Source of the DNA: Candidatus Saccharimonadota bacterium
GTDB taxonomy: Archaea; Nanobdellota; Nanobdellia; Pacearchaeales; GW2011-AR1
Assembly: GCA_049511795.1 (NCBI GenBank)
Contig: JBEKXS010000002.1
Span: 1-32,000, forward strand
DNA: 32,000 nucleotides
Reading direction: 5' to 3'
The notes under the pieces were generated by a model. It saw only the letters and a list, made by a program, of their open reading frames with translations, was not told where the DNA came from and made no database searches. Numbering within the stretch: the first letter of the stretch is position 1; each line of letters starts with the position of its first letter. This document shows, piece after piece, positions 8,743-28,073 of the stretch. Both the position numbers and the translations under genes were made by a program.

Positions 8743-8865
8743 TTTTTATTAAATCACATCAAACTTTTAAATATATCTGACAGATTTCGGAACATTTTAG
8801 CGCATTTTGAGGTTTTTTCAGCTTCCTATAATATAATGCATAATAATCTATAATTTTCATATAAA

Positions 8866-8873
8866 TTTATAAA
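8866..8873 (+). promoter_or_regulatory. TTTATAAA box 29 nt upstream of the ATG at 8895
   Basis: Exact consensus box at the window-typical spacing. Confidence 0.5.
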
Positions 8874-8894
8874 TAAGTTATTGCTTTAAAAATA

Positions 8895-10919
8895 ATGGCA
8901 ACTAAAAGAGGGCTTAATGCAATTCTCATTCTTTCTGTTCTGTTTGTTTTAGTCATTGTTCCTCTTACTTCTGCTGACATAATTATCAATCAACAACCTG
9001 CCAATGTTTACAATCTTGGAGATACAGCTACAATTCCTGTAACAATAAAAACAGCATCAAATGTTGAAGGAATTTTTTACATGGACCTTATCTGCAATGG
9101 CAATGAAATAAATTTCTATAAGGACGGTGTTCAGCTTGCTGCAGGGCAGGAAAAAAATGAGCAGGCATCTTTGGTTTTGTCAAGAACAATTATCGGAAAT
9201 AGTCTTGGAGACTGCACAATAAAGGCATATTTGGGCAGTGATTATTCTCTGACAAGCGCTTTTCAAATCTCTGATGCAATAACAATCACAAGCAACCTTT
9301 CGCAGACAAGCTTTAATCCAGGAGACATAGTATTCATAAAAGGTGTAGCAACAAAGGAAAACCAGAATCCTGCAAATGGTTATGCAGAAGTAATCTTGAT
9401 GGATGGAAATGCAACAATTCTTTCGCAAAACGGAACAGTAAATAATGGATTTTTTTCCTTGAACTTAAGCCTTCCAAACGATACTGCATCAGGAAGTTAT
9501 CTAGTAAGGACAAATGTTTATGAAGAAGATCTTTTAGGCATAACAACAAATCATGGCTCACAGGACAACAACATTTTTGTAAACCAGGTTCCAACAAGTC
9601 TTGAAATTGTTTTCCAAAATCCACAAGTAATGCCTGGAACAGACATGAGTGTTAAGGAAACTCTTTATGATCAAACAGGAATTAAAATAGACACAACAGG
9701 ATTTTTGACAGTAAAAGATAATAACAACAAAATAATTAATCAGGTGCAGGTTTCAACAGACAACTTCACAAATTTCTCAATTGCATCTGACCAGGCACCT
9801 GCAAACTGGACAGTTGTCGCTGTCTCAAACAGGCTTACGAGTGATTCAACATTCACAATCTTGGAAAATGAAAACATAAGCACGACAATAATAAATAATA
9901 CAATCACGATAGCAAACACAGGAAATGTTGTATTCAACAAAACAATTCTTGTTAAAGTGGGAAACCAAAGCTTGAACCTTGATGTTTATCTTCCTGTTGA
10001 CCAAAGCCAGAAATGGGTTTTGACAGCACCAGACGGACAGTACAATGTTCAGGTAATTAATAACGGAGCAATAACAGGAGCAGTTGTTGGCTTGACAGGA
10101 AGCAGTGTAGACATTCAAAAAGCAGGCACTGATTTCTTGAGCATTGTGAAACTTCCTATTGTTTGGGGATTCATGATCTTAATTTTGGGTGCTTTTGCAT
10201 TCATTTTATTCAGAAGAAACTACCAAAAAAATTTTATAGGGTATGCGCCTATATCTTCTAGTAATAAAGGAGGGGCAAGTATTATAGAAAAAAATAAAGG
10301 CATGGACTTAACAATTTATAATCCAAAAAGCAGCAGAGCAGAAGTTGCAATTTCAATAAAAGGCGACAAGCAAGAAGTCAGTGTTTTAGCAGTCAACATA
10401 AAAAACATGATTTCAATCAAGCACACAAAGGGAAGTGGTGGAGAAGAAGTTCTTCAGAAAATAATATCAGCAGCAGAAGACCAGAAAGCTGCAACATATG
10501 ACAATCAAGATTATCTTTACTTCATTTTCGCTCCTGTAAGAACAAAAACATTCACCAATGAAACAACTGCCTTAAGAGCAGCTCAGAAAATAAAGGAGAT
10601 TCTTGACAGCCATAACAGGATTTCAAGGCAGAAGATTGAATTTGGAATCTCTCTTAACTATGGAGAAATAATTGCAAAGCAGGAGCCAGACGTTTTCAAG
10701 TTCATGGGAATGGGAAATCTCATGACAAGGTCAAAAAGAATAGCTTCACTTGCGCAGAATAATATACTCCTTTCTGAAAAAATGACAGACAGGGTAAGGA
10801 CTTCTGTAAGAGTTGAAAAGCTTAAGGTAGATGATTTGGATGTTTATGCACTTACAGAGATGAAGGACGCAAGCAGGAATGAAAAGTTCCTTAAGGGCTT
10901 CATGAAAAGAAATGGTTAA
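8895..10919 (+). CDS. Receptor-like type I membrane protein: signal peptide, glycosylated Ig-like ectodomain, one TM, cytoplasmic cyclase-homology-like domain
   Basis: 674 aa.
- Signal peptide: ..LVIVPLTSA/DII.
- Ectodomain: about 400 aa with more than 10 N-x-S/T sequons.
- TM segment: IVWGFMILILGAFAFILF, about aa 420-440.
- Cytoplasmic part (about aa 480-660) lines up by eye with class III cyclase blocks: VSVLAVNIKNM, QDYLYFIFAP, EFGISLNYGEIIAK, FMGMGNLMTRSKRIASLA..ILLSEKM. Confidence 0.7.
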   Translation: MATKRGLNAILILSVLFVLVIVPLTSADIIINQQPANVYNLGDTATIPVTIKTASNVEGIFYMDLICNGNEINFYKDGVQLAAGQEKNEQASLVLSRTIIGNSLGDCTIKAYLGSDYSLTSAFQISDAITITSNLSQTSFNPGDIVFIKGVATKENQNPANGYAEVILMDGNATILSQNGTVNNGFFSLNLSLPNDTASGSYLVRTNVYEEDLLGITTNHGSQDNNIFVNQVPTSLEIVFQNPQVMPGTDMSVKETLYDQTGIKIDTTGFLTVKDNNNKIINQVQVSTDNFTNFSIASDQAPANWTVVAVSNRLTSDSTFTILENENISTTIINNTITIANTGNVVFNKTILVKVGNQSLNLDVYLPVDQSQKWVLTAPDGQYNVQVINNGAITGAVVGLTGSSVDIQKAGTDFLSIVKLPIVWGFMILILGAFAFILFRRNYQKNFIGYAPISSSNKGGASIIEKNKGMDLTIYNPKSSRAEVAISIKGDKQEVSVLAVNIKNMISIKHTKGSGGEEVLQKIISAAEDQKAATYDNQDYLYFIFAPVRTKTFTNETTALRAAQKIKEILDSHNRISRQKIEFGISLNYGEIIAKQEPDVFKFMGMGNLMTRSKRIASLAQNNILLSEKMTDRVRTSVRVEKLKVDDLDVYALTEMKDASRNEKFLKGFMKRNG

Positions 10920-10939: not shown

Positions 10940-11746
10940 TTATTTTTTCTGTTTTTCTTTGTTGGTTTCTTTAGGTTTGTGCCATATCCTAAATCCAATT
11001 CCAGTCAAGAGTAAAACAGTTCCAAGAATTAATGAAAACCAGAAAGTAATGTTTGCAGTAGCCAAAAATATACTAAGCAAAGAGCCAAATTGGCCAAGCA
11101 TGTTTGCAACTGTCTTTATTACCTGTGAAACAAATATTCCAGAGGCAATAAGAAGGGTTCCTATTATTATTGAAGCATTTGCCTTTCTTTGTGCAGCCCA
11201 GAAAAGAAGAGCAATCAGCAAAAGTGTAACAATAACAGCAAGATAAAACTTACCCATGAAATACTGCTGCGACATTTCTGAAACAAGGAAAGTTGGTGGA
11301 TTTACAGTTGAAAAACACTGCGTGAAGCTGCAATTGTATTGTTTGTAGTAAAAAGCAGATACAATGCTGTCAAGGCTTTGATTTATTATTTGTTGAGCAG
11401 AATTAGAGCTTGAAAAATTTACGCTACTGCAAGGAATGCTAATGCTGTATCCTCCAGAGCTATAATTGTAAACATATCCTGGATTTGCTTGGCAGAAAGC
11501 TTTTGCCTGGTCTGTTGCACTTTGTGCATATTGTGTTATGTTTACGTTTTGTGTAACAGCTGAAGGAAGAATGTTATTTGCTCCTGTGCTTGTTCCTGAT
11601 AAATCCTGAACAAGGGGGTACAATCCCGCTTTAACATTGTCATATTTCAATGATGTTCCCAAAACAAATAATGTATTTGAAGCAATTAATGAAACAAAAA
11701 GAAGTATGCTAAGCAAAACAATAGCTAGCACTCTTAAAAAACCCAT
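10940..11746 (-). CDS. Integral membrane protein with a Cys-containing extracellular loop
   Basis: 268 aa. An N-terminal TM segment, an extracellular segment of about 140 aa with 6 Cys and several sequons, then 3-4 C-terminal TM segments and a Lys-rich tail. A TTTATAAA box at 11768-11775 lies 29 nt upstream. Confidence 0.65.
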   Translation of the reverse strand: MGFLRVLAIVLLSILLFVSLIASNTLFVLGTSLKYDNVKAGLYPLVQDLSGTSTGANNILPSAVTQNVNITQYAQSATDQAKAFCQANPGYVYNYSSGGYSISIPCSSVNFSSSNSAQQIINQSLDSIVSAFYYKQYNCSFTQCFSTVNPPTFLVSEMSQQYFMGKFYLAVIVTLLLIALLFWAAQRKANASIIIGTLLIASGIFVSQVIKTVANMLGQFGSLLSIFLATANITFWFSLILGTVLLLTGIGFRIWHKPKETNKEKQKK

Positions 11747-14351: not shown

Positions 14352-14981
14352 ATGGCTAAAAAGACTTTTTCTAAGATGAAAAAAGGGGTAAAGGCAAAAA
14401 GCATAAAGAAAAAACTAAACCCTGGAGCAAAATCAACAGAGGTAGTTTATCATTCAACAAAGGAAATAAAAGTTGAGAAAGCGCTTATTGACAATTTTAT
14501 AGGTCTGCAAAAAGTTATGGTTGGTCTTTCAACTAAATTTGATAGTCTTTCTGACCAGATATCAAAGCTCCTTGACCTTTTCGAGATTTCTGCAAAATCG
14601 CTTGCAAGAAAAGAGCTTTCATCTCCGGGAACTATAAATACTCAAGCAAACCAGGCAGATGCAAGAAGAATATTGGACAGGCTTGATAATATTTCAAAAC
14701 AGGCCGGACTGATTGGAAGAGGCCTTGCATTAATTCACGAAGTAGGAACAGAAAATGCAAATCCTGTAATTCCCTTAAATATTAACAAGAATAGATTAAA
14801 TCTAGGAACAATGCCAGCGATAAGCAAGCCTTTCCCAACAATGCCGAAGACAGACCAGTCAGTGCCTGCACCTTCAGATTCAGGTTCTGACCAAACGAAC
14901 TCGGCACCAGCAAAAAAAATGACAATGGAACTTGACAGTTTTGAAAAATCATCATCAAGAGACAGCAATAATGTGCCTTAG
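14352..14981 (+). CDS. Hypothetical protein: Lys-rich N-terminus, predicted coiled-coil segment, disordered S/P/N-rich C-terminus
   Basis: 209 aa. ..EKALIDNFIGLQKVMVGLSTKFDSLSDQISKLLDLFEISAKSLARKE.. shows heptad-like spacing. It is followed 3 nt later by the next ORF, so the two are probably co-transcribed. Confidence 0.55.
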   Translation: MAKKTFSKMKKGVKAKSIKKKLNPGAKSTEVVYHSTKEIKVEKALIDNFIGLQKVMVGLSTKFDSLSDQISKLLDLFEISAKSLARKELSSPGTINTQANQADARRILDRLDNISKQAGLIGRGLALIHEVGTENANPVIPLNINKNRLNLGTMPAISKPFPTMPKTDQSVPAPSDSGSDQTNSAPAKKMTMELDSFEKSSSRDSNNVP

Positions 14982-14984
14982 AAA

Positions 14985-15755
14985 ATGTTGGAGCAGACTT
15001 CAAATGATTTCAGGGAAAGATTTCTTCTAAAATTGACAAAAGAGATAATTGAAAATACAAATTATTACCGCGGATTCAAAGTTAATTTTGAAGCACAAAA
15101 CCTTTTCAGGGCAAAACAGGGAAATAAGGAAGACGAGAGAAAGATTTTGGGAATTTTGAACGCTCCAAAAACACTTGACATAGAAAGGCACAATCAAGCA
15201 ATGATTAAAAAGCAGAAAGAAGAAATCAAGGCAAGCATTAAGGACAAAATAAAAGATGAGTCTGAAAAACTTTCTGAGATGAAAAAAAGCAACCTTGCAG
15301 AAGAGCTCAGCTCTTTTTCAAGAAAATTCCAGAGGCCAATGTTTGTTCCATTTGGACAGCCAGGCTCTGTATTTCAAAGAAGATTCCAGCCATTAATGAT
15401 ACCTGAGCAGCCTCTTCCAGAAACAGTAAGCTATGTAAGACCAATTGCAACTTCTGAAGAAATAGATTTGGGAAGAGTAAATATTCTTATACATGACCCG
15501 TTAGTTAAAATTATAGAATGTGATGGTCCTAATGACAATGTTTATGTTATGGGCATTATGGGAAGAAAGAAAACCCCGATAAAGCTCAGCAAAGAGGAAA
15601 TAGAGCAGGTTGTAAAATCTTTTTCTGAGTCTGCAAAAATACCAAGCACAGAAGGCCTCTTCAAGGCAGCTGTGGGAAATCTCGTAATTTCAGCTGTTAT
15701 TTCAGACATAGCAGGAATACAGTTTATTATAAGAAAAATTGCCCCGGAATTCTAA
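14985..15755 (+). CDS. Protein resembling only the N-terminal (pre-Walker A) domain of archaeal FlaI/PilB-type secretion ATPases
   Basis: 256 aa. The C-terminal approximately 95 aa read LGRVNILIHDPLVKIIECDGPNDNVYVMGIMGRKKTPIKLSKEEIEQVVKSFSESAKIPSTEGLFKAAVGNLVISAVISDIAGIQFIIRKIAPEF. This follows the remembered FlaI pattern G.i.pLm.DP.iEDIsCDG....VYV.....g...Tni.f..eEeld.fi..la...gk.is...p..da.l......fTIRKF. The protein stops right after the IRK motif. There is no P-loop. Confidence 0.55.
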   Translation: MLEQTSNDFRERFLLKLTKEIIENTNYYRGFKVNFEAQNLFRAKQGNKEDERKILGILNAPKTLDIERHNQAMIKKQKEEIKASIKDKIKDESEKLSEMKKSNLAEELSSFSRKFQRPMFVPFGQPGSVFQRRFQPLMIPEQPLPETVSYVRPIATSEEIDLGRVNILIHDPLVKIIECDGPNDNVYVMGIMGRKKTPIKLSKEEIEQVVKSFSESAKIPSTEGLFKAAVGNLVISAVISDIAGIQFIIRKIAPEF

Positions 15756-17152
15756 TAATTATAATTTCCGTAAAGGCCACTAACATTCTGTGCAGAAGGA
15801 TTTTGCTGAGAAAGGCTTGCTGCAATGTCTTTAAGGAATTTTATTCTGTCTTCTCCCATTAATGAATTCAATGTTGCATTATCCAAATTAGAAGGATAAG
15901 AATTCTCAATCCAGTATGTTCCTATTTCATATCTTACAACAATGAATCCGTTTAATGCTTGTGCTTCTGTAACCTGCACAGAAATATTTCCAAATTCATT
16001 AATCAATGTATTTTTTTCAGCATCTGTCAATACAAGATTTTGAGTTATAATTGGTGTTGTATTTTCTTGAGGAATAATATTTGTCTCATTTGAAGTTGGT
16101 GTTTGTGGAGAAGTTCCTGTGACTCCTCCTTGGCTTAAGTCTGTATCTATTGAAACTATTTCCTGGCCATTGTATAATATTCCAACATGCATTGGTCCTT
16201 GCTGAAGAGATGAAAGATTCAGCTGATTAAGATTTATTGAAATATCTTTTGTATCTGTTCCTGTGAAATCGCTTCCAAAGCCTTGCTCTTGGGTTGAATA
16301 ACTTGATGTGACAGAAACAATGTTTCCATTTGTTGTTAAGCTGATTGTATTGTCTGGAAGTTGTTGGCCAGAATCAGTATGAACACTAGTTGGTTTTATT
16401 TCAGCTATTTCTCCAGGCTGTAATGTATATGTAAATGTCTGATTCCAAGAAACATTTCCTGTAACTTCATTTTGGAATTGAACAACAGCATGTCCTGTAG
16501 GAGTTAATCCCAGGAAGAAGTTTGCAACAACTCCAATCAAACCAGTTCCATTTGAATTATTATCTTGTGTTGTTAATGGACTGTTTTCTGCAGGCGTTGA
16601 ATTTTCAGTTGGAGTTGTGTTTTCTGTGCCTGAACTAGAAACTTCTGAACTGTTTGTTGAAGAAATTATTAAAGTAAATTGAATATCTGGATAAACAGTT
16701 TTTGTTCCAGCAAGACCAAAACCATCGCCAGAACCGCCTATATTTTGCCCATTAACAAAATAATTTCCCTGTGATGTTTGTTCAGAAACCAAGCTGCTTA
16801 AAGGATACTGATAAGTTTGCCCTCCATTCTCAAAAACAACATTTGAAGAAGCAGGTATAAGTTCACCTTGATTCAATGAAATTTTTAGTTGCCCATCAAG
16901 TGTTTTTCCTTCCTGATAATTTGCATTCAGGTTGAGTATTGCATGACCTGTTGAACTACCATGTCCTTGCCCAATAAGATATGCTCCAAAAATTATGACC
17001 AATGCAACAGGGATTATCCATGCAAACTTTCCCAAAGAAAGTTTTTTCTGACCCTGATATTCAGAAACAACTTTTCCGTCAACTCTTTTGCTTTGGTAAA
17101 GGTAAGGACCGTAAAGCTTGCCGTCTTTTTTTATGTACTTTTCATAAGCCAT
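15752..17152 (-). CDS. Type II membrane-anchored surface protein with T/P/N/E-rich linkers
   Basis: 466 aa.
- Cytoplasmic N-terminus: MAYEKYIKKDGKLYGPYLYQSKRVDGKVVSEYQGQKK.
- One TM segment: FAWIIPVALVIIFGAYLI.
- Large ectodomain with many sequons and linkers such as GTENTTPTENSTPAENSP.
- The stop codon overlaps the convergent stop of 14985..15755. Confidence 0.65.
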   Translation of the reverse strand: MAYEKYIKKDGKLYGPYLYQSKRVDGKVVSEYQGQKKLSLGKFAWIIPVALVIIFGAYLIGQGHGSSTGHAILNLNANYQEGKTLDGQLKISLNQGELIPASSNVVFENGGQTYQYPLSSLVSEQTSQGNYFVNGQNIGGSGDGFGLAGTKTVYPDIQFTLIISSTNSSEVSSSGTENTTPTENSTPAENSPLTTQDNNSNGTGLIGVVANFFLGLTPTGHAVVQFQNEVTGNVSWNQTFTYTLQPGEIAEIKPTSVHTDSGQQLPDNTISLTTNGNIVSVTSSYSTQEQGFGSDFTGTDTKDISINLNQLNLSSLQQGPMHVGILYNGQEIVSIDTDLSQGGVTGTSPQTPTSNETNIIPQENTTPIITQNLVLTDAEKNTLINEFGNISVQVTEAQALNGFIVVRYEIGTYWIENSYPSNLDNATLNSLMGEDRIKFLKDIAASLSQQNPSAQNVSGLYGNYNY

Positions 17153-17214
17153 TGTGTAGGGTAACTAACTTACAATAAGAAATTTAGAATATATTTAAAG
17201 GTTTCTCGGATTTT

Positions 17215-18312
17215 TTATTGCCCGCAGTTTGGGGCTCCCCAAATGTTATATCTTTCACTAGAACTTATATTTGCAAGAGTGTTACCAGAAGGAATATACA
17301 GACCTACTTCAGACATGTTAATATCAGGATAATAAAATGCAGAAGAAATCCCAAAGCAGTTCTGTTCATTAGAACCTGTAAAATTTACTGAATAAGTTGT
17401 ATAACCACTTAAATTGTCTTGATTTTTTGGAAGACTATCACTCTGAAATCTATTTGCACTTCTAGTTTGGGGCCATACTAAAGAAATTATTCCTGTATTT
17501 ATTGGGGGATTTAGATTACACCCGCCTGAACCATCTGCTGTGTATCCTTGAGGACATTGACAGTTAATCTGGCATTTGTATCCTCCATCACAAACTACAC
17601 CTGAATCTTCAGAGCCAGGAGTCCATGTTCCATTACATGAAGAAGGAATAGTACAGTCTACAGGGCAGTTACCTGGAGTTTCCCCTAATGATACCTCACA
17701 AATTCCATTTCCGCAAACAGCTCCACCAGGACCAGTACAATCTATAGGGCAATTTGAAGCAGTTTCTCCTGTTTCACAAATTCCATTTCCGCAAACAGCT
17801 CCACCACCAGTATTTCCACCTGTTCCGCCTGCAGGTGGTGTTCCGCTTATTGTTGCAGTGTCTGTTGGATTTCCGACTGTATTCTGTCCTGAAACAATAT
17901 AAATAGGCGCAACAGAAACGGTATCACCTGCGCTGATTCCAGGAATCTGTGAAGAAGTAAAAGTAAATGTTCTTGTATCCAATTCATTTATTGAAACATT
18001 TTCATCAACACTTACACTTTGTGTATTATTTATAAAAACAAATTTCATTCCGCCCAAAGTTCCTCCGCCTGCGCTTCTTCTTACAGTAACTAAAATGTTT
18101 GATCCAGAAACATATGCAGATTTTATCGCTATATCAAAAGTGAACTGATTAAGATTAACCTGTTTTGAGCCGCTTGAAATAATATTATTAACAACAACCC
18201 AAATAGCGCCTATAGCAACAAGTGCAAGAAGAATAAGAATTAAACTTGAAACAACTGTAGACAAACCAGAATTATTTTTTTTAAGATTAAAAATATTCCT
18301 CTTTTTACGCAT
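17215..18312 (-). CDS. Archaeal type IV pilin-like protein (class III signal peptide) with tandem Cys-rich CGNGICE modules
   Basis: 365 aa. The N-terminus MRKKRNIFNLKKNNSG/LSTVVSSLILILLALVAIGAIWVVV matches the archaeal pilin N-terminal pattern: a charged n-region, a small residue, then about 20 hydrophobic aa. Two tandem modules read AVCGNGICE(x4-6)GE(x3)NCP(I/V)DCT. A further Cys-rich segment follows (CNGTW..CDGGYKCQINCQCPQGY..GGC). Confidence 0.65.
   Translation of the reverse strand: MRKKRNIFNLKKNNSGLSTVVSSLILILLALVAIGAIWVVVNNIISSGSKQVNLNQFTFDIAIKSAYVSGSNILVTVRRSAGGGTLGGMKFVFINNTQSVSVDENVSINELDTRTFTFTSSQIPGISAGDTVSVAPIYIVSGQNTVGNPTDTATISGTPPAGGTGGNTGGGAVCGNGICETGETASNCPIDCTGPGGAVCGNGICEVSLGETPGNCPVDCTIPSSCNGTWTPGSEDSGVVCDGGYKCQINCQCPQGYTADGSGGCNLNPPINTGIISLVWPQTRSANRFQSDSLPKNQDNLSGYTTYSVNFTGSNEQNCFGISSAFYYPDINMSEVGLYIPSGNTLANISSSERYNIWGAPNCGQ
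17697..17806. repeat. Perfect 32-bp direct repeat (two copies, 78-bp period) inside the pilin-like gene
   Basis: cacaaattccatttccgcaaacagctccacca occurs at 17697-17728 and again at 17775-17806. On the minus strand it encodes the GGAVCGNGICE core of each 26-aa module. Confidence 0.9.
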
Positions 18313-18333
18313 TGCTAAAAAAAGACAAAGCTC

Positions 18334-18341
18334 TTTATAAA
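18334..18341 (-). promoter_or_regulatory. TTTATAAA box 29 nt upstream of the ATG at 18312
   Basis: Exact consensus box. Confidence 0.5.
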
Positions 18342-18353
18342 ATTACCGAACAT

Positions 18354-18674
18354 TTATGATGCTGGAGCTGTTGTTCCTGTTGTTGGGGCTGTCTGTGCTG
18401 CTGCGTTTTGCTGTTGTGCCTGTTGCAAACATTCAAGTGCTACCAAATGTATTGTCTGGTTTCCTACAGGCAAAGCGAAGGTCTGACATTGACCTACAGT
18501 GTTCACAATCTGGGAAAGCACATAATTTGCTCCCTGGACTGCGCCTTCATTCTGCTTCTGAACAGTGTATCCAGAAATTGCAGGCTGTATCACAAAGGCA
18601 TATATCATAACCAATGCCATAATGACAACAACTAAAGCAAGAACAGTTATCCAAATGCTTTTTGTATCTGCCAT
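18354..18674 (-). CDS. Small N-terminally anchored protein, possibly pilin-like
   Basis: The track ORF starts at a TTG (18677). The next codon is an ATG (18674), which sits 29 nt from a TTTTTAAA box, so I call 106 aa. The sequence begins MADTKS-IWITVLALVVVIMALVMIYAFVI. It continues as a short ectodomain with 2 Cys and ends in a Q/A/T-rich tail. Confidence 0.5.
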   Translation of the reverse strand: MADTKSIWITVLALVVVIMALVMIYAFVIQPAISGYTVQKQNEGAVQGANYVLSQIVNTVGQCQTFALPVGNQTIHLVALECLQQAQQQNAAAQTAPTTGTTAPAS

Positions 18675-18695
18675 CAATAGATTAAATAAAAGCTG

Positions 18696-18703
18696 TTTAA
18701 AAA
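18696..18703 (-). promoter_or_regulatory. TATA-like box (TTTTTAAA on the minus strand) 29 nt upstream of the ATG at 18674
   Basis: Spacing rule. It supports the ATG start rather than the TTG start. Confidence 0.45.
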
Positions 18704-18762
18704 ACTTATGTTGCTGTAACAGTTATAATCTTTAATAATAAAAATTAGTAAGTAAAAGTAGT

Positions 18763-19521
18763 CTAACTGTTCGTTGTTATCTCAACCATTGTTATTACAT
18801 CTCTCCAAGCAACATTTCCAGTGTTTGTTGCGACGACCGAAATAACATCGCCTGCCTGGAAATTAACAATTCCTTTTTCCTGAACATCATAGTCTTTCTT
18901 CATTCCAATTGCTGTTGCGTCTATTGTGTTGCCGAAACTTATTGGCTGCCCATTCTTGAGTATTACAATATTTATTTCTCCAGGATTTCCCTGAATGACT
19001 TCAAGGTTTGTTGATATTGCAGTTATGCTTCCGTCTCTAGGCATAACATATCCTTTTGAATCACTTGTCTGAACTCCTGCTCCTGTATTCAAAAATCCAG
19101 ATTGATTCATTATTCCACTGTATCCAAAGTCCAAGAAATTTCTCTTGTCGCTTGCAACAATCAAATCCCCTTGTGCCTTAAGCTGCTCAAGTGAATATGC
19201 GACGACATAAACCTGTTTGTTCTGGTTGTTTTGTGAATAATTTATCTGGTAAATTGCAAGATTATTGTCATTGACATTTTTTATATTGACTTCTTTTGGA
19301 AGAGAATTGAAATCAACCTGACCAACTCCTGTTATTGAATTCTGATCTATTCCTCTTTTAGATGCAAATTGTGCTACAAAGCCAGAAACCTGACTGCTAA
19401 GCTGTCCTATAACACTGCTGTTTGTCTGTGAGTTTACGTTTGTTGCTTCTGCAGAAATAACAAAAGCACCTATTGCAAGAACCAGCAAGACAACAATTAT
19501 TCCTAAAAATATTTTCCTCAT
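18763..19521 (-). CDS. Secreted hypothetical protein
   Basis: 252 aa. Sec-type signal MRKIFLGIIVVLLVLAIGAFVISAEA/T, followed by beta-rich sequence. Confidence 0.65.
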   Translation of the reverse strand: MRKIFLGIIVVLLVLAIGAFVISAEATNVNSQTNSSVIGQLSSQVSGFVAQFASKRGIDQNSITGVGQVDFNSLPKEVNIKNVNDNNLAIYQINYSQNNQNKQVYVVAYSLEQLKAQGDLIVASDKRNFLDFGYSGIMNQSGFLNTGAGVQTSDSKGYVMPRDGSITAISTNLEVIQGNPGEINIVILKNGQPISFGNTIDATAIGMKKDYDVQEKGIVNFQAGDVISVVATNTGNVAWRDVITMVEITTNS

Positions 19522-25223: not shown

Positions 25224-25234
25224 CATGTTGAGAA

Positions 25235-26748: not shown

Positions 26749-26836
26749 AAAATATAATAGAAAATCAGAGATATAAATTTAACCTAAAAGGCTTGAAAGA
26801 AAGCTTTTAAAATATAAGCGATACTTAAACAATTAT

Positions 26837-27464: not shown

Positions 27465-27538
27465 ATTCTTTCTTTAAACAAATAGTCGCTACCACTGACA
27501 AACCTTAAATATACTTCTCAGCTTAAAAAATAATAACT

Positions 27539-27620: not shown

Positions 27621-28073
27621 TTATTGAGTAGAATCTGTTTGAATTTCTCTAGCAGGTTCAAAAGTTCCGTCTCCTCTGCCTTTTGCTAACATTTTTTTTG
27701 TGCCAAAAACATAAAAAAGATCTGCTTTTCCATCACCATCAAAATCTTTAACTGCAAATTCACTTATTTCTCCATGTATAGGTTTTGAAATAGGTTTTTT
27801 TGGTCCAAATGTTCCATTACCATTACCATGAGCAAAATAAAAAGCATAATCCATATCATAAGACTGACCTAAACCAGGCATACCTCTGTGGATATGTGTT
27901 CCATCATGCATATCAACTACATAATAATCAATAAAGTCATAAGAGATAGCATCAGCTTTTCCATCACCGTCTACATCTTGGTAAACTGTATCATAATGTC
28001 TAGGAATATTAACACAACCTAGACTAAATCCTAATGCACCTAAAGCAATTAATTTGCTAAGTGTTTTTCTCAT
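27621..28073 (-). CDS. FG-GAP/VCBS-repeat lipoprotein-like protein
   Basis: 150 aa. Signal with a lipobox-like LGFSLGC. Two Ca-binding-type repeats, DVDGDGKAD and DFDGDGKAD. Confidence 0.7.
   Translation of the reverse strand: MRKTLSKLIALGALGFSLGCVNIPRHYDTVYQDVDGDGKADAISYDFIDYYVVDMHDGTHIHRGMPGLGQSYDMDYAFYFAHGNGNGTFGPKKPISKPIHGEISEFAVKDFDGDGKADLFYVFGTKKMLAKGRGDGTFEPAREIQTDSTQ

Follow-up and report, generated by a model that had tools for sequence, protein, structure and literature searches.

We examined a window of 32,000 nt, that is, the whole stretch of DNA analysed here, which comprises positions 1 to 32,000 of contig JBEKXS010000002.1 (assembly GCA_049511795.1; GTDB lineage Pacearchaeales). 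Features lie on the forward strand unless otherwise indicated. The gene under study is a complete open reading frame (ORF) at 8895..10919 that encodes 674 aa plus a stop codon, and its product is a predicted type I membrane protein of a family, the MG-ectodomain/pseudo-cyclase family, that joins a macroglobulin (MG)-type ectodomain to a cytoplasmic domain resembling a class III nucleotidyl cyclase. Reading from the N-terminus, a signal peptide precedes four all-beta ectodomains; one transmembrane (TM) helix then leads, through a disordered linker of ∼37 aa, to a cytoplasmic domain that measures ∼195 aa. A template-free AlphaFold2 (AF2) model of the full-length protein, built from a family alignment of 95 sequences and reaching a mean predicted local distance difference test score (pLDDT) of 88.3, laid these parts out as beta domains at residues ∼28-126, 127-231, 232-324 and 325-412, a TM helix at 421-441 and a compact alpha/beta domain at 481-673.

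Hydropathy analysis revealed only two hydrophobic segments in the 674-aa protein, at residues ∼4-24 and 421-441. The former belongs to the signal peptide (residues 1-27, 8895..8975; MATKRGLNAILILSVLFVLVIVPLTSA, followed by D), which is helical at residues 4-21 in the model. This segment ends in T-S-A before the D. Almost all family members share S26 and A27, whereas the remainder of the signal peptide is just 27% identical, as expected for a cleaved signal peptide, so that processing probably takes place after residue 27. The second and last hydrophobic segment is the single TM helix (residues 421-441, 10155..10217), also a helix in the model and directly followed in the protein sequence by the basic stretch RRNYQK, which fits a cytoplasmic C-terminus. 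As a prediction, a type I topology is well supported. Thus, the cleavable signal peptide and the single TM segment claimed in a preliminary description of this DNA, which had been read from the sequence alone, were both recovered, and so was the beta-rich character of the ectodomain, all of whose residues from 28 to 412 fold into beta structure in the AF2 model. The juxtamembrane linker that comes next (residues 442-478, 10218..10328) is disordered, poorly conserved and variable in length: in the full-length model residues 442-476 have a pLDDT below 50 and contain no helix, and across 95 homologues the linker is 29-69 aa long with 22% identity. The catalytically degenerate cyclase homology domain (CHD) follows at residues 479-658 (10329..10868), and the protein ends with an amphipathic helix (residues 659-674, 10869..10916; helical at 659-673 in the model), on which F665, F669 and R672 are near-invariant and which in homologues is extended by tails rich in K and E.

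The evidence for a cyclase fold came principally from structure prediction. A second template-free AF2 model, restricted to residues 476-674 and built from an alignment of 37 family members only, reached a pLDDT of 91.7 and a predicted template-modelling score (pTM) of 0.85, and the order of its strands and helices was that of the cyclase homology domain. When these residues were compared with the PDB using Foldseek, the top 50 matches were all catalytic domains of class III adenylate or guanylate cyclases, with E values between 1.3e-11 and 2.4e-9 and template-modelling scores of 0.58-0.77 over 178-204 aligned columns (at most 0.69 when normalised to the query and 0.77 when normalised to the target). 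RhoGC, Cya2, Rv1625c, CyaC, mammalian IIC2, GC-A (9bcv), soluble guanylate cyclase (sGC), CyaB and Rv1900c were among them. We conclude from the model that the fold of the cytoplasmic domain is that of the class III nucleotidyl cyclases (CHD). The preliminary description, which would have been contradicted by the lack of any significant profile or structural match for residues 470-674, therefore agrees with the Foldseek result.

At the sequence level the relationship was much fainter. Five reference cyclase domains were verified against the PDB: residues 222-443 of Rv1625c were 100% identical to 4p2m, and VC1, IIC2, CyaC and GC-A scored ∼2.1-2.3 bits per residue against their own PDB chains. 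A hidden Markov model (HMM) of these five domains scored divergent members of the family up to 26.5 bits, in alignments running nearly end to end; member P0249, for example, was aligned across HMM positions 14-181. In the reverse search, for which the family HMM was run on the five cyclases, the scores were negligible. When 37 family domains were scanned singly against Pfam, weak matches to Guanylate_cyc appeared in 11 of them (best E value 1.9e-4), by far the most frequent family, and GGDEF, mCpol and the Cas10 palm were matched once or twice each (GGDEF weakly, in two of the 37). Among PDB sequences the family profile likewise scored best with a cyclase, 3mr7, though without reaching significance (E value 0.54), and phmmer against the PDB returned the GGDEF domain of DosC, equally without significance (E value 0.56). 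A GGDEF diguanylate cyclase (PF00990) was considered and rejected on the grounds that there is no G[GAS][DE]EF motif, that Pfam gives no match and that class III cyclases, not GGDEF proteins, head the structural matches.

A global hhalign alignment of the family with the five cyclases placed the residues in a sensible register, and the local HMM alignments to divergent members reproduced that register independently. Three blocks that the preliminary description had aligned by eye were recovered by both methods, namely VSVLAVNIKNM with vsvlFaDIvgF, FGISLNYG with RvGihtG and MGNLMTRSKR with wGdtVNvAsR. The fourth, QDYLYF with GDaymv, was reproduced as a block, but its register is uncertain by one residue. 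Alignment to the single Rv1625c sequence with hhalign produced only a meaningless local match.

We then counted the residues found at the catalytic positions over 262 family domains, with Rv1625c as the reference for numbering. In the register given by hhalign and the local HMM alignments, the first metal-binding Asp position (D256) corresponds to codon 501 (10395..10397). This codon specifies Asn in the window protein, exactly as the preliminary description had stated; among the family domains the position is Lys in 149, Asn in 49, Arg in 23 and His in 12 (57%, 19%, 9% and 5%, respectively). The second metal-binding Asp position (D300) falls at or next to codon 539 (10509..10511), which is Asp in the window protein and Asp in 109, Asn in 56, Glu in 47 and Gly in 33 of the 262 domains (42%, 21%, 18% and 13%); position 540, the alternative for this Asp, is occupied by Asn, Tyr, Thr or Ser. 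Just one of the 262 sequences carries Asp at both metal positions. The pair of residues that specifies the base (Lys or Glu on beta2; Asp, Thr or Cys on beta5) is likewise replaced in the family. The specificity Lys position (K296) corresponds to 535, which is Tyr in 94%, or, if the register is shifted by one residue, to 536, which is Glu in 74%, and the specificity Asp position (D365) corresponds to 604, which is Met in 73%. The transition-state Asn position (N372) corresponds to 611 and varies between Thr, Ser, Asn and Ile. The sole canonical catalytic residue to survive is the transition-state Arg (R376), at position 615 and in the form of Lys or Arg. Codons 614-615 (10734..10739; Lys-Arg in the window protein) encode a nearly invariant basic pair, with 247 Lys and 14 Arg at position 614 and 223 Lys and 34 Arg (85% and 13%) at position 615. 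Five of the six catalytic positions have thus been lost throughout the family.

Neither Asp nor Glu reaches 90% conservation as a single residue at any position of the domain, and E556 (89% Glu, 92% acidic) is the only near-invariant carboxylate. Given this dearth of conserved carboxylates and the presence of the Asp pair in one of 262 sequences, nucleotidyl transfer by two metal ions, the chemistry that defines class III cyclases, is very unlikely, and the domain is best regarded as a pseudo-cyclase that probably does not make cyclic nucleotides by that mechanism. The preliminary description had suspected degeneracy from the first Asp only; the loss of five of six positions makes a stronger case than the one it had put forward. 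Its other suggestion, that the protein may use unusual chemistry, appears unlikely because no Asp or Glu attains 90% conservation and a single acidic position is near-invariant. In raw counts, positions 501 and 539 co-varied: Lys at 501 occurred with Asp or Glu at 539 in 123 sequences, and Asn at 501 with Asn at 539 in 36. Since the canonical metal-binding Asp residues are neighbours in space, this co-variation supports the alignment register, and the pairing fits a salt bridge or hydrogen bond that would occupy the former metal site.

Loss of the catalytic residues has not been accompanied by relaxation of the domain. Across 95 homologues, its mean identity to the window protein is 49%, equal to that of the ectodomains, with the linker at 22%. 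Structural hallmarks in common with true CHDs are kept, that is, G584 and G590 of an RxGxxxG-like motif, F603 and G607. Besides these, the family has near-invariant residues of its own. K503-N504 occupies the x-G of the cyclase DIxGFT motif, the equivalent of the phosphate-binding loop, and K614-K615 lies at a position equivalent to alpha4. Further family-specific motifs are G490-x-K-Q, Y535, P547-x-x-T550-K/R-T552-F553-x-N555-E556 and H573-N574. This pattern of conservation suggests a pocket or interface that has been remodelled and may still be functional. By fold, then, the domain is a member of the class III cyclase superfamily; by the catalytic features that define this superfamily it is not.

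The ectodomain consists of four beta-sandwiches. Beta-sandwich 1 (residues 28-126, 8976..9272), all-beta with a pLDDT above 90 in the AF2 model, contains the only two cysteines of the protein, C67 and C107, both invariant and probably joined in a disulphide. Beta-sandwich 2 (residues 127-231, 9273..9587) is MG2-like, with a Pfam match to MG2 at residues 140-206 that has an E value of 7e-5 and lies under the gathering score; many homologues carry a precomputed match to the same family (PF01835). Beta-sandwich 3 (residues 232-324, 9588..9866), with an invariant D259-Q260-x-G262, is the most conserved of the four, and beta-sandwich 4 (residues 325-412, 9867..10130) carries an invariant N341-x-G343-N344; both were delimited by model and conservation. 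A Foldseek search of the whole model against the PDB was dominated by the MG arrays of complement C3, C4 and C5, alpha2-macroglobulin (A2M), TEP1 and CD109, at E values from 1e-14 to 1e-11. Together with the sub-threshold Pfam match, these results identify the ectodomain as a tandem array of MG domains. A thioester motif (CxEQ, as in CGEQ) was not found in the protein sequence, whose cysteines are C67 and C107 only, and no match to a bait region or to a TED or CUB module was seen. The preliminary description had called the ectodomain dense in N-x-S/T sequons. Taken literally this is correct, as there are 12, but the density is neither significant (7.9 expected from shuffled composition, P = 0.07) nor conserved (homologue median, 5), and sequon enrichment was dropped as a feature of the ectodomain.

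A search for homologues at E values of 1e-3 or lower retrieved 171 proteins, nearly all of which measure ∼660-690 aa and align collinearly with 96-100% of the query; more than 100 of these relatives are conserved over their full length at 40-78% identity, which goes beyond chance. All 171 are annotated as hypothetical, and those from named organisms come solely from metagenome-assembled genomes of Nanoarchaeota, Nanoarchaeia or Pacearchaeota. An HMM search of 1.84 billion representative sequences found 711 clusters (at 50% identity) with E values of 1e-3 or lower, 596 of them at 1e-10 or lower. In the best 150 of the 711 clusters the domain always lay at or near the C-terminus, and full-length members measured ∼650-700 aa. 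In the literature on cyclases or macroglobulins of DPANN, Pacearchaeota or Woesearchaeota, we found no paper on a family of MG-ectodomain pseudo-cyclases.

The gene is embedded in an AT-rich stretch (∼35% GC) of housekeeping genes of archaeal character, which encode threonyl-tRNA synthetase (ThrRS) with the archaea-specific editing domain, tryptophanyl-tRNA synthetase (TrpRS), phosphoenolpyruvate (PEP) synthase/pyruvate phosphate dikinase (PPDK), the alpha and beta subunits of phenylalanyl-tRNA synthetase (PheRS), subunits of replication factor C (RFC) and the p30 subunit of RNase P. In three relatives whose proteins are 43-47% identical (loci L003, L004 and L005), the gene is also divergent from TrpRS-ThrRS and upstream of PEP synthase. 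Since the whole block is syntenic, this arrangement indicates vertical inheritance rather than a specific functional link. Between the TrpRS gene and the family gene lies an AT-rich divergent intergenic region of 152 nt (8743-8894), which contains a TATA-like element, TTTATAAATA (8866..8876), ∼20-28 nt upstream of the ATG. This element, identified by reading the sequence, is a putative promoter element, and its spacing to the ATG suggests that the leader is very short or absent.

On the other side of the gene, the reverse strand encodes a multi-pass membrane protein of 268 aa (10940..11746) with no Pfam match and an outside loop rich in Cys and in Asn and Ser. In L003, L004 and L005 the family gene is followed, one or two genes further on, by a homologue of this protein (28-29% identity). 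It is a possible partner of the pseudo-cyclase, with the qualification that the whole block is syntenic. Within the window we found neither a protein that binds cyclic nucleotides, a GAF protein or a phosphodiesterase, a result of little weight for the entire genome, nor a second CHD-like ORF.

Several other features of the window were recorded. On the reverse strand, the 241-aa ORF at 5203-5928, without a Pfam match, lies downstream of ThrRS in L003, L004 and L005 as well (31-62% identity). A run of ORFs of 209, 256, 466, 365, 107 and 252 aa (14352-19521), again without Pfam matches, represents lineage-specific dark matter; the 209- and 256-aa ORFs adjoin PEP synthase in L003 too, at 54% and 40% identity. 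The reverse-strand gene at 3099-4586 combines Radical SAM, Radical_SAM_C and weak GNAT domains, which is an Elp3-type architecture. A 150-aa protein (27621-28073, reverse strand) that contains FG-GAP-like repeats (E value 8.8e-11) and a stretch faintly resembling SLH is possibly a surface protein as well. Finally, besides four ordinary tRNAs (Glu-TTC at 2693, Thr-GGT at 25234, Gln-CTG at 26836 and Glu-CTC at 27538), Rfam matched a tRNA of 121 nt at 1948-2068 (53.2 bits) that ARAGORN did not call and that is probably an intron-containing archaeal tRNA.

On this evidence we hold, with a probability of roughly 0.7, that the gene encodes a type I membrane pseudo-cyclase of Nanoarchaeota-type DPANN archaea that is specific to the lineage and vertically inherited. 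Such a protein would presumably function in a receptor-like manner. To judge from homology, the CHD fold would act as a dimerisation module, and an anionic ligand or a partner from the cytoplasm would be accommodated in the remodelled, lysine-rich pocket; K503-N504, Y535, K614-K615 and the K501-D/E539 pair would then be positions of the canonical triphosphate pocket that remain strongly constrained and carry new residues. The TM helix is not joined to the domain by a rigid helical transducer, so any coupling of outside to inside would be expected to proceed by clustering or dimerisation, and not by a piston or rotation signal.

Several observations weigh against this interpretation. Neither the window protein nor its residues 470-674 matched a cyclase or GGDEF family of Pfam, even at E values up to 10, so that the HMMER comparison with Guanylate_cyc and GGDEF that the preliminary description had proposed as a check failed for the window protein itself, which does not reach the curated threshold of PF00211; NCBIfam likewise returned neither a cyclase nor a GGDEF match, whether for the full protein or for residues 470-674. 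The global hhalign alignment, for all its sensible register, had a non-significant probability of 0.1%. With profile-profile statistics of this kind, the residue mapping rests on the fold match and on the concordant local alignments. Moreover, the register leaves a one-residue doubt about the second metal-binding Asp (539 or 540), the co-variation of 501 with 539 was not corrected for phylogeny, and the conserved residues of the old pocket could be structural instead of ligand-binding.

If the domain were nevertheless active, the protein could be a receptor-type nucleotide cyclase that works with non-canonical residues. In favour of this, the CHD fold is intact and constraint on the old pocket persists; K/R615 also preserves a basic residue where the transition-state Arg would be, and in the window protein itself position 539 is Asp. 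Set against this, two-metal nucleotidyl transfer needs two invariant carboxylates, and here position 501 is Lys in 57% of the family, 539 alternates between Asp, Asn, Glu and Gly, both Asp residues coincide in a single sequence of 262 and E556 is left as the one near-invariant acidic position, while the base-specifying pair and the transition-state Asn have gone as well; we therefore consider a working cyclase highly improbable. The missing metal-binding Asp residues could alternatively be supplied in trans, if the protein formed a heterodimeric cyclase as its non-catalytic chain, in the manner of mammalian adenylate cyclase (AC) C2 or an sGC subunit, and the partner CHD were encoded elsewhere. 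Heterodimeric class III cyclases do have one chain without the metal-binding Asp residues, and IIC2 has Ser at both aligned positions. A chain of the C2 type must nonetheless contribute Lys, Asp or Thr, Asn and Arg, and three of these four are missing here (Y535, M604 and the variable 611, with K/R615 kept); in addition, the 32-kb window contains no other CHD-like ORF. We give this explanation hardly any credence.

The domain may, on the other hand, do nothing beyond anchoring. The protein would then be a purely structural or adhesive surface protein, of the S-layer or envelope for instance, whose CHD-like domain is an inert plug or oligomerisation anchor with neither ligand nor signalling. 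A rigid array of Ig-like MG domains is a common type of ectodomain in surface proteins, the disordered and unconserved linker argues against conformational signalling, and the gene is located among housekeeping genes. An inert plug would be unlikely, however, to keep 49% identity and ∼18 near-invariant polar or charged positions in 262 diverged members. Several of these positions coincide with canonical nucleotide-contact positions, and the high conservation of the ectodomain is more in keeping with a fixed partner than with host surfaces that vary. We regard a purely structural role as unlikely, if a good deal less so than either of the catalytic explanations. Within the pseudo-cyclase interpretation, a more specific proposal is that the remodelled pocket is a metal-independent sensor of a nucleotide or other phosphorylated metabolite, in which lysines replace the Mg2+-binding Asp residues and which dimerisation couples to the MG surface array; this is a speculative proposal, and probably not the correct one.

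Comparison with known systems brings out what is peculiar to the family. Class III adenylate and guanylate cyclase catalytic domains (PF00211; Rv1625c, RhoGC, Cya2, CyaC, mammalian AC C1 and C2) have the same fold and topology over ∼180-195 residues, and they share with the family the RxGxxxG-like motif (FGISLNYG here), the F/Y...G of beta5 and the basic residue on alpha4. Unlike them, the family has both metal-binding Asp residues, the specificity pair and the transition-state Asn replaced, and possesses invariant motifs of its own (G490, K503-N504, T550/T552/N555/E556 and N574). The degenerate halves of heterodimeric cyclases (AC C2, sGC subunits) are likewise CHD folds without the metal-binding Asp pair, but in them the specificity residues and the Asn-Arg pair are retained, and an active site is completed together with the partner chain, whereas the family has lost those residues. 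In topology, that is, an ectodomain, one TM helix and a cytoplasmic CHD, the protein resembles the single-pass receptor cyclases (animal GC-A and GC-C; trypanosomatid receptor adenylyl cyclases). The ectodomain of receptor cyclases has the periplasmic-binding-protein fold. The archaeal protein differs from them in having an MG-array ectodomain and a catalytically dead CHD, a disordered linker in place of a helical dimerisation or transducer segment, and no kinase-homology domain. Tandem MG-type beta-sandwiches are also typical of alpha2-macroglobulin, complement C3-C5 and TEP; in contrast to these, the family protein has four domains only, lacks the thioester motif and is anchored in the membrane with a cytoplasmic domain. 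According to a passage in PMC8646023, which cites Bassler et al. 2018, class III cyclases are rare in archaea. The bacterial cyclase-like DUF2652, as it is described in Ramakrishnan et al. 2016 (PMC4886424), is also linked to class III cyclases by remote homology only; it is cytosolic, without TM segment or signal peptide, and retains residues that potentially confer cyclase function, unlike the present family, which is archaeal and membrane-anchored and has lost the function-conferring residues.

For gene annotation, a label of adenylate cyclase is unwarranted. The domain with the CHD fold is part of a large, conserved and wholly unannotated family of Nanoarchaeota/Pacearchaeota-type DPANN archaea, and it offers a case of a pseudoenzyme in which the two metal-binding Asp residues have apparently been replaced by a co-varying pair of Lys and Asp or Glu. 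How DPANN archaea, with their tiny genomes, perceive and attach to other cells is poorly understood, and purifying selection on both faces of this conserved single-copy membrane protein makes it a concrete candidate for a role in envelope or contact biology. If the sensor proposal were true, the protein would represent a new kind of receptor in archaea: its pseudo-cyclase would read cytoplasmic or host-derived status or, in the opposite direction, surface contact would be reported to the cytoplasm, and for organisms reliant on partner cells the protein could be a core part of how contact is sensed.

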